Both the position numbers and the translations under genes were made by a program. Shown here piece after piece: positions 3,282 through 11,279 of a stretch of 32,000 bases of DNA; positions within the stretch are counted from its first letter, which is position 1; each line of letters opens with the position of its first letter. The DNA comes from an uncultured Chloroflexia bacterium. GTDB lineage: Bacteria; Chloroflexota; Anaerolineae; Anaerolineales; Anaerolineaceae. The stretch is taken from assembly GCA_963704755.1 (NCBI GenBank), contig OY969938.1:540001-572000 (forward strand), read 5' to 3'. The notes under the pieces were generated by a model. The model was not told the DNA's origin. It was given only the letters and a program-made list of their open reading frames with translations, and ran no database searches.

Positions 3282-5394
<2,113 letters not shown>

Positions 5395-5603: not shown

Positions 5604-5624
5604 ATTTTGTAAGCGGAGGTGATT

Positions 5625-5987
5625 GTGAAAGCCGGAAAACTGATTCTGTATATCGTTGCAGGTATCCTGATCTTCTTCGGTGTCCTGTTCATCTGGGGGG
5701 CCACCGGCGATCAGGGGAATATGGCCTGGATACCGGTTGGAATCATTACGGTCGCCATCGGCCTGATTCTGATTTATTTTGCTTCGCGCAGGCCCGCCGT
5801 GCCTGACCAGACCAACGTCACTTTGAAAGTCGATTTACCTGGGAATGTCGGCATGGATGCGATAAAATGCAAGTCTTGCGGGGGTACGTTGGGGCCTGAG
5901 GACATCAAAATGGTCGCGGGGGCGCCGGTGGTGACATGTCCATATTGCCATACCACTTACCAACTTACCGAAGAACCAAAATGGTAA
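5625..5987 (+). CDS. small membrane protein with C-terminal zinc ribbon
   Basis: GTG at 5625 lies 5 nt after GGAGG (5615-5619); the track start at 5619 overlaps the SD. Two hydrophobic helices (LILYIVAGILIFFGVLFIWGA, WIPVGIITVAIGLILIYFA) precede CKSC-x19-CPYC. Confidence 0.6.
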   Translation: MKAGKLILYIVAGILIFFGVLFIWGATGDQGNMAWIPVGIITVAIGLILIYFASRRPAVPDQTNVTLKVDLPGNVGMDAIKCKSCGGTLGPEDIKMVAGAPVVTCPYCHTTYQLTEEPKW

Positions 5988-6106
5988 TTAAATCGTTTTC
6001 ATCAGAGATCTGAAAGCGGGAAGCCTTTCCCCGAACAGGATTTACTCGAAAGTTACCCATATCTACCAATAAAAAAATAATTTCGACACCCTTCAGGGAG
6101 GGATCA

Positions 6107-7801
6107 ATGCGAAAAATTTATCCGTTATGGGCCTTGCTGCTTATTCTGCTGCTGGCTCTCCAGGTTGCGCCGGCTAACGCCCAAAACCTGGATTTTCAAG
6201 TGCCTCAACAGAACATTCAGGCCATCGTCAACTCCGATGGGACCCTTTCTCTGGACTACACTATCGTTTTTGCCAATAGCGCTTCCGGCGATGTCATCGA
6301 CATTGTGGATGTTGGTATGCCGAATTACGACTACGAAATCAGCTCGATGAGCGCCGAAATCGATGGTTACGCCGCAGAGGAAATCCTCGACTCTGAATAC
6401 GTCCACCCCGGTATCGAAGTCCACCTGGGTTCGCACAGCATCCAACCTGGCCAAACGGGCACACTGCACCTGCATGTCGGTACAGTCAAGAACGTCATTG
6501 GTCAATCGACGCTGGAAGAGTCCGAGCCTTATGCCAGCCTGGTCTTCAGCCCCAATTATTTCGACAGCAGTCTCGTCTCGGGTAAAACTGATTACACTGT
6601 TTCGCTGATCCTTCCGGCCGGGATGACTGCCGAAGAGCCGCGTTATCACAACCCCAGCAGCAACTGGCCGGGGGCTGACGCCGCTACCGCTTCGTTCGAC
6701 AGCCAGGGACGGGTTGTATATACCTGGACTTCCACCGACGCGTCCAGCGGCAAGGCTTACATATTCGGCGCCAGTTTTCCGGAACGGCTGGTTCCCATAA
6801 CCTCGGTCGTCGCCACCGAAACCCCCAACAACCGTACCATCGACACCAGCGGGATCTTTGGCTGCCTGTGTGTGGTGGGAATTTTGGGCCTTTTCACCGC
6901 ATTAGGGGTGGTTTCAGCCAACGCCAATAAGAAACGCCGTTTGCAATACCTGCCTCCCAAGATTTCAGTCGAAGGACATGGCATTAAACGCGGCCTGACC
7001 GCGGTCGAAGCTGCTATTCTGATGCAGACCCCGCTCGATAAGGTCATGACCATGGTCTTGTTCTCTACCTTAAAAAAGGAAGCCGCAACGGTAGAAACGC
7101 GTGACCCGCTTAAGCTGACCATCGCCGACCCGCTGCCCGAAGGCTTACAGCCTTACGAAGTCCTGTTCTTGACCGCCTTTAAAGAAACAAACGACAAAGT
7201 CCGCAAAGAAAAACTTCAGGACATGACCATCTCCCTGGTCAAGTCGGTCCAGGAAAAGATGAAGGGCTTTAGCCGTAAGGAGACCATCGACTATTACCAG
7301 GCAATCACCGAGAAGGCCTGGACGCAGGTAACCTCTGCAGACACCCCCGAGGTCAAATCGCAAGCCTACGAGCAGGTCATGGACTGGACCATGCTGGACC
7401 ATCAATGGGAAGATCGCACACGCACCACCCTGGGATCCGGACCGGTATTTGTGCCGACCTGGTGGTGGCGTTACGATCCGGTCGTGCGTGGTACTCAATT
7501 TGGCGGTGGCGTAGCTCATACGGCCGCGCCGGCCGGGATGCCATCCGCGGGTGGGCAGATCTCTATGCCCAAGCTGCCCGGCTCTGATTTTGCCGCCTCG
7601 ATGGTCAATGGGGTGCAAACGTTCTCGGCCGGGGTTATCGGCGGTGTGACCAACTTCACCAGCAACATCACCAACCGCACCAACCCGCTCCCCAAGCCAA
7701 GCAGCAGCTCATCCGGAGGCCACTTTGGCGGCGGCGGTGGTTGTGCCTGCGCATGTGCCTGCGCCGGTTGCGCCTGTGCCTGTGCCGGTGGCGGCCGCTA
7801 A
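6107..7801 (+). CDS. DUF2207-like membrane protein with C-terminal Ser/Gly linker and Cys-Ala repeat tail
   Basis: GGAGGG SD. Signal peptide ending APANA/QN, a ~230-aa beta-rich ectodomain, a TM helix (IFGCLCVVGILGLFTALGVVSA) followed by NANKKRR, then a soluble region (GLTAVEAAILMQTPLDKVMTMVLFSTLKK). It ends SSSSSGGHFGGGGGCACACACAGCACACAGGGR. The DUF2207 assignment is from memory of that family's architecture. Confidence 0.75.
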   Translation: MRKIYPLWALLLILLLALQVAPANAQNLDFQVPQQNIQAIVNSDGTLSLDYTIVFANSASGDVIDIVDVGMPNYDYEISSMSAEIDGYAAEEILDSEYVHPGIEVHLGSHSIQPGQTGTLHLHVGTVKNVIGQSTLEESEPYASLVFSPNYFDSSLVSGKTDYTVSLILPAGMTAEEPRYHNPSSNWPGADAATASFDSQGRVVYTWTSTDASSGKAYIFGASFPERLVPITSVVATETPNNRTIDTSGIFGCLCVVGILGLFTALGVVSANANKKRRLQYLPPKISVEGHGIKRGLTAVEAAILMQTPLDKVMTMVLFSTLKKEAATVETRDPLKLTIADPLPEGLQPYEVLFLTAFKETNDKVRKEKLQDMTISLVKSVQEKMKGFSRKETIDYYQAITEKAWTQVTSADTPEVKSQAYEQVMDWTMLDHQWEDRTRTTLGSGPVFVPTWWWRYDPVVRGTQFGGGVAHTAAPAGMPSAGGQISMPKLPGSDFAASMVNGVQTFSAGVIGGVTNFTSNITNRTNPLPKPSSSSSGGHFGGGGGCACACACAGCACACAGGGR

Positions 7802-9196
7802 ATGAAAGGTCGTTTTGTGACTGTTTCACCCAGGCGATTTTTATCGAAAATCTTTCCCGCTTCACCCGAAAAAGGCGCAGGTCCGCTGCCTGCGCCTGGT
7901 TTGTTCCATTTTCTACGCCAGAACGGTCCTGAAAAAGCACGGATTCACCTGCGCCTCGACCCGGACGGTACCGGTACGCTGCTGATCAACGCCAGCCGGA
8001 TCTTTCACCTCAACCCGACGGCAGCGCACATGGCTTACCTGAATTTAAATGAAATCCCTGAAGACCAGGTGATCGATCGTTTAACCAGGACATACAAGAT
8101 CAAACGCGAACAGGCCCGGGCCGACTACCTGGCATTGTCCAGCCAGCTCGATGAGCTCGTCCGCCCGGATGGCGCCTGCCCAATCTGTGATCTCGACCTG
8201 GAAACGACTGCACCGTTTTCGGCCCGGCCCAACAGCCCCTATCGCATGGACCTGGCCCTCACTTACCGCTGTAACAACAATTGCAGCCACTGCTATAACG
8301 CCAGGTCACGCAGCTTCCCGGAGCTCGGCCTGGAACAATGGCTGGCTATCATCGACCGCTTATGGGAGATCGGTGTTCCCCATATCGTATTCACCGGCGG
8401 CGAGCCGACCCTCTCGCGCTACCTGCCCGAGCTGATCGCTCACGCTGAAAAGAACGGGCAGATCACCGGGATCAATACCAACGGCCGCCGGTTGAAAGAC
8501 CCTGATTTCGTTCAAAAGCTGGTCGATGCCGGCCTGGATCACGCTCAAATCACGCTGGAATCGCATATCCCGGCCATTCACGACCAGATGGTCGCCGCAC
8601 CCGGCGCCTGGCAGGACACCATCCAGGGGTTGAAAAACGTTTTGGCCACCCGCTTGTTCGTGATGACCAACACGACCTTGTTGCAAAATAATTCGCCTTA
8701 CCTGGCCGATACGCTCGACTTCCTGGCCGGCCATGGCGTACCCACCGTCGGACTGAATGCGCTGATCTACTCGGGCAAGGGCGCCAATGTCAACACCGGC
8801 CTGCCGGCTGCGGACCTGCCTGCCCTGTTGGAAATCGCCCGGGCCAAAACAGCCCAATCCGGGCAGCGGCTGATCTGGTACACACCTACCGAATACTGCC
8901 ACTTCGATCCTGTCCTGCTCGAGCTGGGCGTCAAGGGCTGCACCGCTGCCTTGTACAATATGTGCATCGAACCGGATGGCAGTGTTTTACCCTGCCAATC
9001 CTATTACACCCCCCTGGGGAACATGCTCGAAACACCCTGGGAGCAAATCTGGAATCATGATTTGGCCGTTTCTTTGCGCGAACGGCGTAATCTGCCTGAA
9101 AAATGTAACGCCTGTGAACTGATCAGCGAATGTGGCGGGGGTTGCCCGCTCGAACGCCAGGCCCACGCTGAAACTGTATCATCTGCTCAGGATTAA
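7802..9196 (+). CDS. radical SAM/SPASM domain enzyme with N-terminal PqqD-like (RRE) domain
   Basis: The ATG immediately follows the upstream TAA. CxxxCxxC = CNNNCSHC (Cys157/161/164), GGE motif VFTGGEPTL, SPASM motif CNACELISECGGGC (Cx2Cx5Cx3C) plus 4 further upstream Cys. The N-terminal segment GTLLINASRIFHLNPTAAHMAYLNLNEIPEDQVIDRLTRTYKIKREQARADYLALSSQLDELV is PqqD-like. Confidence 0.9.
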   Translation: MKGRFVTVSPRRFLSKIFPASPEKGAGPLPAPGLFHFLRQNGPEKARIHLRLDPDGTGTLLINASRIFHLNPTAAHMAYLNLNEIPEDQVIDRLTRTYKIKREQARADYLALSSQLDELVRPDGACPICDLDLETTAPFSARPNSPYRMDLALTYRCNNNCSHCYNARSRSFPELGLEQWLAIIDRLWEIGVPHIVFTGGEPTLSRYLPELIAHAEKNGQITGINTNGRRLKDPDFVQKLVDAGLDHAQITLESHIPAIHDQMVAAPGAWQDTIQGLKNVLATRLFVMTNTTLLQNNSPYLADTLDFLAGHGVPTVGLNALIYSGKGANVNTGLPAADLPALLEIARAKTAQSGQRLIWYTPTEYCHFDPVLLELGVKGCTAALYNMCIEPDGSVLPCQSYYTPLGNMLETPWEQIWNHDLAVSLRERRNLPEKCNACELISECGGGCPLERQAHAETVSSAQD

Positions 9197-9223
9197 TCAC
9201 CTTTCCGATTTTCGGAGGTCACC

Positions 9224-10396
9224 ATGTTGGATAATCTTCGCAAACAATACAACCGGCTATTCAAACCGGCCCAACCGCTTCCATCCGGCATATACCATTA
9301 TCAGGCTCCACCTGATGCGCCTTTGCCATATCGCCTGCACCTGCGGGTCGATCCCAACAACGAAGGCATCCTGGTCGTCAACGCATCCACCGTGCTGCAT
9401 ATGAATGCCACTGCCTGCGAATATGCATATCATCTGATCAAAGGCAGCAGCGAAAAAGAGATCATACAAGATATTTCTTCGCGCTACCAAATTGACAAGC
9501 ATCAGGTTACGAAAGACTTTAAGATTTTCGAGGAACGCATCCGTTCTTTGATCGAATCGCCTGATCTGGACCCGGTCACTTTTCTGGATTTCGACCGGGA
9601 CGAAATTTATTCGGCCAACCTGAGCGCTCCCTTACGCCTGGACTGCGCGCTGACCTACCAGACTGTCGAAGACAAACCCGGAGAAAACACGCCGGTCGAG
9701 CGGGTGGACCATGAGTTGGTCACCGCCGAATGGATCCGTATCCTGGATAAGGCCTGGGAAGTGGGCATACCCCAGGCGGTGTTTACCGGCGGTGAACCCA
9801 CCTTGCGGCCGGATCTGGTGGACCTGGTCCAGCACACCGAGGACCTGGGTATGGTCGTCGGCATCCTCAGCGATGGACTGCGTTTTACCGATAACGAATT
9901 CCGCCACAGAATCCTGGCCGCCGGTTTGGACCACTTGATGCTGGTCCTGGACCCGGATAACGACCATTCCTGGGAAGCTTTGCGAGATACCCTGGCCGAG
10001 GACCTCTTCATCACCGTCCACCTGACCATTACTCCTGAGAACCAGGCGGATATACGCGGATTGATCTACAAACTCGCGGATATGGGCGTCAAATCCATCA
10101 GCCTGAGCGAGAGTGATCCCAGCCTGACGGCCACGTTGAATCAGGCCCGCGATCTGGCCGCTTTCCTGCAGGTCAGCCTGGTTTGGGATCTGCCGGTGCC
10201 CTATTCGCAGGCCAACCCGGTCAGCCTGGAATACGAAAAGATCGAAGATATCCCCCAGGGAGCCGGCAAAGCCTGGCTATACGTCGAGCCAGACGGAGAC
10301 GTTCTGCCGACCCAGGGTGTAACCACCGTGCTCGGCAATATGCTCACTGGTTCCTGGGATGCCATCTGGCAAAAGGCGCAAGAAACGGCCGCATGA
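9224..10396 (+). CDS. cluster-less paralog of the radical SAM/SPASM enzyme (pseudo-rSAM) with PqqD-like N-terminal domain
   Basis: GGAGG SD at 9214-9218. Alignable end to end with the 7802 gene: LHLRVDPNNEGILVVNAS vs IHLRLDPDGTGTLLINAS, VFTGGEPTL in both, and YVEPDGDVLPTQGVTTVLGNML vs CIEPDGSVLPCQSYYTPLGNML. CxxxCxxC is replaced by QTVEDKPGE, no SPASM cysteines remain, and the whole protein has only 2 Cys. Confidence 0.8.
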   Translation: MLDNLRKQYNRLFKPAQPLPSGIYHYQAPPDAPLPYRLHLRVDPNNEGILVVNASTVLHMNATACEYAYHLIKGSSEKEIIQDISSRYQIDKHQVTKDFKIFEERIRSLIESPDLDPVTFLDFDRDEIYSANLSAPLRLDCALTYQTVEDKPGENTPVERVDHELVTAEWIRILDKAWEVGIPQAVFTGGEPTLRPDLVDLVQHTEDLGMVVGILSDGLRFTDNEFRHRILAAGLDHLMLVLDPDNDHSWEALRDTLAEDLFITVHLTITPENQADIRGLIYKLADMGVKSISLSESDPSLTATLNQARDLAAFLQVSLVWDLPVPYSQANPVSLEYEKIEDIPQGAGKAWLYVEPDGDVLPTQGVTTVLGNMLTGSWDAIWQKAQETAA

Positions 10397-11136
10397 ACGC
10401 CCGCGAATGGGCAGATCGCTTCGAACAGCAGGCCGGTTGGACGCGCGCCATGCGCCAATATCTGCTGCAAACCTTGCAACTGCCCGAAAGCCCGCGTATC
10501 CTCGAGGTTGGCTGCGGAACCGCGGCCGTGTTGAAAGAATTCGACCCGAAAAATACCCGGGCCTGGGGACTGGACCTGCGGCTGGATTACCTGCACCTGG
10601 CTCGCAAGATATTCCCGCAAGCATCTTATACCTGCGGTGACGTCGCCTATCTGCCCTATCGAAAGTCCGGCTTCGACCTGTGCTATTGCCATTATTTCTT
10701 GATGTGGGTCGATGCAACCCAAGCGTTGGCCGAGATGGGCCGGGTGACCCGCCCGGGCGGCGCCGTGCTGGCCCTGGCCGAGCCGGATTATGGTGGGCGT
10801 ATCGATACCCCCGCCGAACTGGCTGTGTTGGGCCAACAGCAAACCCTGGCGTTAGCCCGCCAGGGCGCCGATCCATCCAGCGGGCGCAAACTGGCTGCTC
10901 TTTTCCACCAGGCCGGCCTGGCGGACATTCAGGTGGGTGTCATTGGAGCCAACTGGTCCATGACCGGCCGGGCGGCTGAATCGGTGCTGGAATGGAGCGT
11001 CCTCCGGGCCGATCTGCAGGGCACATTTTCCCCTGCCGACCTGGATCGCCTGGAAGCCATCGACCGCCAGGCCTGGGCTGCCGGTGAGCGCATCCTCTAC
11101 GTGCCCACGTTTTACGCCGTCGGGCGCGTAAACTGA
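10393..11136 (+). CDS. class I SAM-dependent methyltransferase
   Basis: The ATG at 10393 overlaps the upstream stop (ATGA). Motif I RILEVGCGTAAV, acidic loop GLDL, and GDVAYLPYRKSGFDLCYC. The track ORF start at 10183 is a spurious extension. Confidence 0.8.
   Translation: MNAREWADRFEQQAGWTRAMRQYLLQTLQLPESPRILEVGCGTAAVLKEFDPKNTRAWGLDLRLDYLHLARKIFPQASYTCGDVAYLPYRKSGFDLCYCHYFLMWVDATQALAEMGRVTRPGGAVLALAEPDYGGRIDTPAELAVLGQQQTLALARQGADPSSGRKLAALFHQAGLADIQVGVIGANWSMTGRAAESVLEWSVLRADLQGTFSPADLDRLEAIDRQAWAAGERILYVPTFYAVGRVN

Positions 11137-11202: not shown

Positions 11203-11279
<77 letters not shown>

Follow-up and report, generated by a model that had tools for sequence, protein, structure and literature searches.

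The 32,000-nucleotide stretch of contig OY969938.1 analyzed here (the window, to whose full length all coordinates refer) contains an operon on the + strand in which two adjacent genes encode paralogs of the radical S-adenosylmethionine (SAM) superfamily. The first is a radical SAM/SPASM enzyme of 464 residues, defined by its open reading frame (ORF) and Pfam matches (7802-9196), whereas the second (9224-10396; ORF, alignment and structural model) is a 390-residue protein, hereafter pseudo-rSAM, that retains the fold and has lost all ligands of the iron-sulfur (Fe-S) clusters. We hold with moderate confidence that pseudo-rSAM represents an old pseudoenzyme duplicate, acting as a non-catalytic subunit or partner of the neighboring maturase, with which it would share a division of labor on the cysteine-rich tail of a membrane protein encoded directly upstream.

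As first proposed in a prediction made from the sequence alone (the original prediction), the two adjacent proteins are full-length paralogs. BLASTP aligns them from end to end (residues 11/6 to 418/383 of the active enzyme and pseudo-rSAM, respectively) over 414 columns at 31% identity (E 4e-63), well outside what chance would give, and both copies contain the VFTGGEPTL segment and the EPDG..LP...LGNML block. The active enzyme displays all hallmarks of a radical SAM/SPASM maturase, namely a CX3CX2C motif, a SPASM cysteine motif and an N-terminal PqqD-like element of the kind that recognizes peptides made on the ribosome and modified after translation (RiPPs), known as a RiPP recognition element (RRE). 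The predicted cluster motif CNNNCSHC was located at residues 157-164 (C157-N-N-N-C161-S-H-C164; 8270-8293, +) and is followed by a GGE motif at residue 199, while the SPASM set consists of C380...G393xxxxC398 and a complete Cx2Cx5Cx3C motif, CNACELISECGGGC, at residues 435-448 (9104-9145, +); the protein has 13 cysteines in total. It scores above the Pfam cut-offs for Radical_SAM (85 bits), SPASM and PqqD (26.1 bits), the latter match covering residues 56-118 of an RRE region that extends over approximately residues 30-121 (7889-8164, +). No NCBIfam equivalog was reached at its cut-off (best match 122 bits versus 500) and, judged by its sequence, the enzyme is a member of no named subfamily. 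The best relatives of solved structure in a PDB sequence search are SkfB and PqqE.

Pseudo-rSAM proved to be as poor in cysteines as predicted, with C65 and C141 as the only two in the entire protein. At the position expected for the cluster loop it reads LTYQTVEDKPGENTPVERVDHE, and model and alignment identify LTYQTVEDKPGENTPVERVDHELV (9650-9721, +) as the segment standing in place of the CX3CX2C cluster-binding loop (loop sequence QTVEDKPGENTPVERVDHE). Having neither CX3CX2C nor a variant of this motif, it does not qualify as a catalytically competent radical SAM enzyme. Its end aligns with residue ~425 of the active enzyme, ten residues short of the Cx2Cx5Cx3C motif, again as foreseen, and it shows neither a SPASM match in Pfam nor any of the CX9-15GX4C...CX2CX5CX3C...C ligands, which places it outside the SPASM/twitch subfamily as well. 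What remains is VFTGGEPTL, with the GGE motif at residues 189-191, the EPDGDVLP..LGNML block and, within it, a cysteine-free hairpin, EPDGDVLPTQG.

The fold itself is preserved. Pseudo-rSAM exceeds the cut-off of the Pfam family Radical_SAM (PF04055; 33 versus 29.5 bits) and combines the partial (beta/alpha)6 TIM barrel with the GGE motif, as is characteristic of the radical SAM fold. With 54 homologs as input, AlphaFold2 produced a model (predicted local distance difference test, pLDDT, 83; predicted template modeling score, pTM, 0.83) showing an N-terminal sheet whose strands lie within residues 22-60, followed by three helices at 62-111, a layout that is, in the model, that of a PqqD-type recognition element. 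It continues with six beta/alpha units between residues 138 and 314, a beta-hairpin at 351-361 equivalent to the beginning of a SPASM domain, and a terminal helix, with the acidic former cluster loop (143-166) and residues 328-340 as the poorly defined parts. The RRE that the original prediction had assigned to both copies is thus a recognizable domain in each of them: in pseudo-rSAM (residues 20-111; 9281-9556, +, by model secondary structure and alignments) the match to PqqD (PF05402) stays at 19.1 bits, under the gathering score of 23.4, whereas many of its orthologs carry a precomputed PF05402 match, and the model and the alignments to SkfB and SuiB lead to the same assignment. In Foldseek searches against the PDB, PqqE, SuiB and SkfB came out on top (SkfB with 404 columns and a template modeling score, TM, of 0.61), the alignments to SkfB and SuiB extending over ~400 columns, and PDB sequence searches retrieved the same relatives for the active and the pseudo protein. 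None of the family and structure searches (Pfam, NCBIfam, PDB, Foldseek) pointed to another catalytic family for pseudo-rSAM. It matched no NCBIfam model at its cut-off and is not a member of the pseudo-SAM/SPASM family TIGR04347 (43.8 bits versus a cut-off of 525).

The pseudo-rSAM family was sampled in three ways: by the 120 database homologs closest to the window protein, by the 64 copies that occur among 112 fetched loci (L001-L112, of which 80 were contributed by a metagenome scan), and by ~25 distant full-length representatives, obtained when 1.8 billion cluster representatives were searched exhaustively. The closest homologs are 53-69% identical to pseudo-rSAM and have intact frames of 382-417 residues with one to four cysteines. 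A CxxxCxxC motif, whose retention in orthologs would have spoken for recent local decay, was found in none of the 120 homologs, none of the 64 copies and none of the ~25 distant representatives, whose identity goes down to ~31% and which all share the terminal block LGNLL..W..IW. Because the cluster motif is missing from every sample of the family, its loss is ancient rather than the product of local decay. The ratio of nonsynonymous to synonymous substitution rates (dN/dS; Nei-Gojobori, genome pairs with unsaturated dS only) is 0.03-0.075 for pseudo-rSAM, far from the value near 1 that would have counted against the original prediction, while the active paralog reaches 0.07-0.13 when the same pairs are compared; the corresponding values are 0.05-0.14 for the tail protein and ~0.2 for the methyltransferase of the operon. 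The best-conserved block of the family lies in the RRE and reads YRLHLR..DG.G.L..NAS.VLH.N.TA.E in alignments and group consensus. It persists in distant copies, in which the GGE motif decays (GSDP, GTEP, GDEP, DVPEE), and SAM binding is for this reason rejected as a conserved role of the family. A conserved catalytic function of Cys141 can likewise be rejected, given that this residue is missing in type II copies (see below) and in some distant ones.

Further relatives (P0295, P0311, P0364, P0336, P0357 and P0371) have lost their cluster ligands in differing combinations, some keeping a long C-terminus with no cysteine motifs and others keeping the SPASM cysteines with CX3CX2C gone. It seems that clusters were lost repeatedly or stepwise in this part of the superfamily.

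The most informative result comes from a comparison of the two copies by domain, which reveals an asymmetry. The RRE of pseudo-rSAM is 43-52% identical to that of solo enzymes, i.e. active enzymes from loci with no pseudo copy nearby, and 33-34% identical to that of its own partner, and the consensus sequences of the pseudo and solo RREs share an LHLNQTA.E block. Across 38 type I paired loci, the RRE of the active enzyme is the fastest-evolving domain of either protein (mean distances of 0.95 for the RRE, 0.43 for the barrel and 0.37 for SPASM), whereas the RRE of pseudo-rSAM evolves no faster than its barrel (0.70 versus 0.75). Both the similarity of the RREs and the asymmetry of their rates are expected if the two proteins cooperate on one substrate.

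The obvious candidate for this substrate, as far as sequence can tell, is the C-terminal tail of the protein encoded by the preceding gene (6107-7801, +; ORF, AlphaFold, Foldseek and hydropathy), a type I membrane protein of 564 residues. By hydropathy and AlphaFold it consists of a signal peptide, a beta-sandwich ectodomain, a single transmembrane helix, a KKRR sequence, a helical domain on the cytoplasmic side and, at the C-terminus, a disordered tail. The ectodomain resembles the N-domain of M1 aminopeptidases or ribophorin in Foldseek, and the protein has 4601 database homologs; no Pfam (E up to 10) or NCBIfam family matched it. Given the predicted topology, with a signal peptide, one transmembrane helix and KKRR, the tail should face the cytoplasm and hence lie on the same side as the radical SAM proteins. 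The protein ends in GGGGGCACACACAGCACACAGGGR, the terminus termed CA tail in the original prediction. Its last 19 residues, CACACACAGCACACAGGGR, with seven cysteines (presumed modification site; 7742-7798, +, defined by cross-locus identity), are identical in 80 loci that comprise 77 distinct DNA sequences and vary at every synonymous site, and the full CACACAGCACACAGGGR motif forms the terminus of 117 of 120 tail-protein homologs. Outside the tail, the proteins are only ~45-60% identical. Since the synonymous sites vary and the rest of the protein is this divergent, the tail is conserved as a peptide; a conserved DNA or RNA element is ruled out by the variation at all synonymous positions. 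A gene for a small precursor peptide is not present, leaving the tail of the membrane protein as the cysteine-rich candidate for a cysteine-directed radical SAM/SPASM enzyme. The description of the locus as RiPP-like needs a qualification, in that the C-terminal tail of a 564-residue membrane protein, instead of a short precursor peptide, is presumed to be modified. As to the chemistry, our preferred guess, although rather less likely than not, is cysteine-to-alanine or cysteine-to-glycine thioether cross-links followed by methylation, because SkfB is the closest characterized relative by sequence and the tail is composed of cysteine, alanine and glycine only.

These observations can be combined into a simple scheme, in which heterodimerization, the assignment of the substrate-binding RRE, the role of the tail as substrate and the chemistry are inferred. 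An ancestral single radical SAM/SPASM enzyme with a functional RRE would have been duplicated, upon which one copy lost all three Fe-S sites and kept the ancestral recognition module, with its barrel possibly turned into a cradle for the substrate or a surface for contact with the partner. The other copy would have kept its SAM and SPASM clusters while its own RRE drifted, either freed of constraint or put to another use. Pseudo-rSAM may then provide substrate recognition or scaffolding and its active partner the radical chemistry, so that both radical SAM-fold proteins and the methyltransferase would act in the cytoplasm on CACACACAGCACACAGGGR. It is tempting to go further and to picture an obligate heterodimer in which pseudo-rSAM, as the substrate-holding end state of the asymmetry seen in the TrnC/TrnD pair of thuricin CD (see below), docks the cytoplasmic domain and tail of the membrane protein, while its partner stitches the (Cys-Ala)n hairpin into a thioether ladder or another cysteine-derived structure; in this specific form, we regard the proposal as doubtful. 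If true, the modified motif would be of a previously unknown sort, carried by a protein, tethered to the membrane and serving a housekeeping function in Anaerolineae, as opposed to a secreted natural product.

The arrangement of the genes in other genomes agrees with a functional link between the two copies. In type I loci, including the window, a small protein, the tail protein, the radical SAM enzyme, pseudo-rSAM and the methyltransferase follow each other in this order, whereas type II loci have pseudo-rSAM and the methyltransferase 5' of the small protein, the tail protein and the radical SAM enzyme (L077, L085, L090). In type IV loci (L014, L016, L020), pseudo-rSAM directly follows the tail protein, and the opposite strand encodes a longer radical SAM enzyme (41% identical) together with a paralog of the cytoplasmic domain of the tail protein. 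Solo loci contain the small protein, the tail protein and the radical SAM enzyme, with or without the methyltransferase; a pseudo copy is absent from the DNA fetched for them, whose flanks reach no further than 6 kb (both sides exceed 5 kb at several loci) and do not amount to whole genomes. On clustering, all pseudo copies form one group, and the active enzymes fall into clades that match the presence or absence of a pseudo neighbor, the solo clades being sister to those with one. Within the fetched loci, pseudo copies occur inside the operon of the Cys/Ala tail or beside parts of it. The distance from the stop codon of the active gene to the start of the pseudo gene is -17 to +60 nucleotides in 36 of 57 loci, a spacing in keeping with joint expression as one unit. 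A role as non-catalytic partner, already put forward in the original prediction, thus draws support from gene spacing, operon linkage and the apparent division of labor between domains, as well as from the TrnC/TrnD precedent.

Several of these loci have peculiarities of their own. The longer enzyme of the type IV loci (L020 8833-11414, -; also L014 and L016) is a 562-residue radical SAM/SPASM protein with its own Cys/Gly/Ser-rich C-terminal extension, GGGGCSGCSGSCATGHS..., and is paired with a tail-less, 298-residue paralog of the cytoplasmic domain. At L002 (3856-5986), the active and the pseudo gene are split by an insertion of three genes of membrane-lipid type, whose products by eye resemble a CDP-alcohol phosphatidyltransferase, a lipid A-type acyltransferase and a PAP2 phosphatase, and similar insertions of 2.2-4.1 kb are seen in L001 and L003-L008, all from one lineage. 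Radical SAM-methyltransferase pairs of the solo clade are also found at the metagenome loci L034, L043, L048, L050, L051, L054 and L095, where neither a tail protein nor a CACAC-containing ORF nor a pseudo copy was detected within ~5-6 kb on either side, suggesting that in some lineages the genes of the system may be scattered or another substrate may be used.

A number of findings weigh against a purely non-catalytic, dedicated partner. The pair is interrupted by 0.45-4.1 kb of other genes in 17 of the 57 loci and, in a few cases, pseudo-rSAM lies beside the methyltransferase and away from the active gene, or stands alone (L090, L106). The absence of a pseudo copy from solo lineages is known only for their flanks of at most 6 kb. 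In a mirror-tree analysis between domains of the three proteins (pseudo-rSAM, active enzyme and tail protein) in the 38 loci, the barrel of pseudo-rSAM and the cytoplasmic domain of the tail protein show a raw r of 0.72, which is a hint, not evidence; the partial correlations are weak (0.2-0.3). Finally, many polar residues that line what used to be the active-site face are invariant in type I pseudo copies (D140, GGEP 189-192, D236/H237, H266/T268 and S293), a pattern that could equally be the signature of a pocket for a ligand or of a newly acquired catalytic site.

The latter observation is in line with the most probable alternative, according to which the barrel was neofunctionalized and, no longer doing radical chemistry, has an activity of its own on the tail, for instance by binding SAM, 5'-deoxyadenosine or a metal, or by catalyzing a non-radical cleavage or cyclization. 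Pseudo-rSAM would then belong to the same pathway without being a passive scaffold. Where the barrel strands end on their C-terminal side, a 54-sequence alignment shows many invariant polar residues (D140, T144/Y145, G189-G190-E191-P192, R195/D197, D236/H237, H266/T268 and S293), which would suit such a function, as would the very strong selection on the whole pseudo protein, including its barrel, and the near-invariant Cys141 on strand beta-1 of type I copies. However, neither the GGE motif nor Cys141 is conserved in distant family members or type II copies, the pseudo barrel evolves faster than the active barrel (0.75 versus 0.43), and the searches described above led to no other catalytic family. 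We therefore consider neofunctionalization unlikely.

Pseudo-rSAM might also serve as an adaptor or chaperone independently of the active radical SAM enzyme, either as an RRE-bearing recruiter of the methyltransferase or as a holdase that protects the tail with its seven cysteines against oxidation until it is modified. The methyltransferase itself lacks a recognition domain. It is encoded directly after pseudo-rSAM, often with overlapping stop and start codons, in type I and type II loci as well as in L023, and in type II loci (L077, L085, L090) these two genes are found upstream of the pair of tail protein and radical SAM enzyme and are separate from it. However, the methyltransferase gene of solo loci adjoins the single radical SAM gene, being located directly 3' of it with no pseudo copy nearby (L036, L047, L052, L065), and the relaxed RRE of the active partner is limited to pseudo-bearing lineages. 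As relaxation is confined in this manner, pseudo-rSAM appears to be tied to the radical SAM enzyme rather than to the methyltransferase, and an independent adaptor strikes us as quite improbable. The idea of a degenerating duplicate, be it a recent pseudogene or a functionless relic, has in its favor that every cluster ligand and the SPASM C-terminus are gone, but is refuted by the selection and distribution data, with unbroken frames in all 120 homologs, a family reaching down to ~31% identity, a dN/dS of 0.03-0.075 and a confidently modeled fold (pLDDT 83), and can be dismissed.

The pair is embedded in a group of five close-packed genes on the + strand that spans positions 5619-11136 in the ORF list. 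Its first gene (5619-5987, +) encodes a 122-residue protein that, according to its ORF, hydropathy and weak zinc-ribbon hints in Pfam, has two N-terminal transmembrane helices followed by RR and a C-terminal zinc-ribbon-like CxxC...CxxC segment; homologs are encoded 5' of the tail protein gene in most loci. The tail protein gene runs right up to the active radical SAM gene, with stop and start codon side by side (TAA-ATG), a 27-nucleotide spacer with a GGAGG ribosome-binding site (9197-9223, +) precedes the start of pseudo-rSAM, and the stop codon of the latter overlaps the ATG of the methyltransferase gene (ATGA), as read from the sequence. The last gene (10393-11136, +) specifies a class I SAM-dependent methyltransferase of 247 residues (Pfam Methyltransf_11 and Methyltransf_25), whose position 3' of pseudo-rSAM is conserved in most loci. 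The five-gene cluster is present in 31 species-level genomes, all of them Anaerolineae or Chloroflexota, and also in the cultured isolate Bellilinea caldifistulae (GCA_001050215.2). A tRNA-Pro(GGG) gene (11203-11278) directly 3' of the methyltransferase gene marks the end of the operon. Upstream of the cluster lies the divergent ligA gene for NAD-dependent DNA ligase (3310-5337, -), and the same divergent neighbor is found in B. caldifistulae (L112 292-2343); the cluster therefore occupies a conserved chromosomal position, which suggests vertical inheritance. PADLOC models gave only generic viperin and methyltransferase superfamily matches for the proteins of the window, and nothing in this outcome points to a known defense system.

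Cluster-less radical SAM look-alikes are already known as curated families, and an asymmetric radical SAM pair has been demonstrated experimentally for TrnC/TrnD; our literature searches found no description of the pseudo-rSAM family, the tail motif or the operon. Radical SAM peptide maturases are usually seen as self-contained, a view to which TrnC/TrnD added an asymmetric paralog pair in 2025. If our reading is true, pseudo-rSAM would represent a member of such a pair that has given up every metal cluster and yet experiences selection no weaker than that on the active copy. Lineages with paired and with solo enzymes share the same invariant presumed substrate and thus provide a natural experiment that makes the role of the second copy testable. 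The 19-residue tail, class-wide in its distribution and part of a membrane protein with no known family, may in turn carry new cysteine chemistry. There is also a practical side to these results: with "radical SAM protein" or "PqqD family chaperone" as the present annotation of proteins of the window type, the pseudo copy would be wrongly counted among the enzymes in automated genome mining.

How does the pair compare with systems described before? TIGR04347 is a curated family of radical SAM look-alikes that, like the window protein, have no CX3CX2C motif, but it keeps a SPASM domain. TIGR04150 (pseudo-rSAM protein, GG-Bacteroidales system) is another such family and is found beside an active radical SAM/SPASM maturase. 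For the NCBIfam pseudo-SAM families, which are bioinformatic definitions, our literature searches found no tested role. Maturases of the SkfB, PqqE, SuiB and CteB type have the same order of RRE, partial TIM barrel and SPASM or twitch domain as the window proteins; however, those of the SkfB, SuiB and CteB type are single self-sufficient enzymes, PqqE works with the small separate protein PqqD, and none of them is known to have a cluster-less paralog as a partner.

Catalytically dead members of an enzyme superfamily can present substrates to active ones, as illustrated by the E1-like "C protein" of YcaO cyclodehydratases, which carries an RRE and presents the substrate to its catalytic partner. 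This protein belongs to another superfamily and, unlike pseudo-rSAM, is not a paralog of the catalytic subunit that it serves. In the HXS anti-phage system, the paired radical SAM genes hxsB and hxsC act on a full-size short-repeat protein, HxsA, which is matured and exported; both HxsB and HxsC need their clusters, and no HxsB-HxsC complex was detected (PMC13128918). The window locus is similar in having paired radical SAM genes and, presumably, a full-size protein as substrate, but differs in that its second copy has no clusters and the presumed substrate is held in the membrane.

The TrnC and TrnD proteins of the thuricin CD pathway form a complex through their RREs, and only the radical SAM cluster of TrnC is needed (Chem Sci 2025, PMC12093266; commentary, PMC12406949). 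TrnD has a reduced C-terminal cluster domain and is modeled as the main binder of the leader peptide, yet it keeps the radical SAM cluster and one auxiliary cluster and cleaves SAM (PMC12093266; PMC12406949). By the features described, the window locus shares with this system a pair of adjacent radical SAM paralogs with RRE-type N-termini in which the radical chemistry comes from one copy. In contrast to TrnD, pseudo-rSAM has no cluster ligands and therefore cannot bind a cluster. The substrates differ as well: TrnC and TrnD modify two short, leader-bearing bacteriocin peptides destined for secretion, whereas the window locus encodes no short leader-bearing sactipeptide precursor of this type and would act on the C-terminus of a class-wide 564-residue membrane protein. 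TrnC/TrnD nevertheless provides the closest tested precedent, and next to it, the pair in the window gives the impression of this design carried through to its end.

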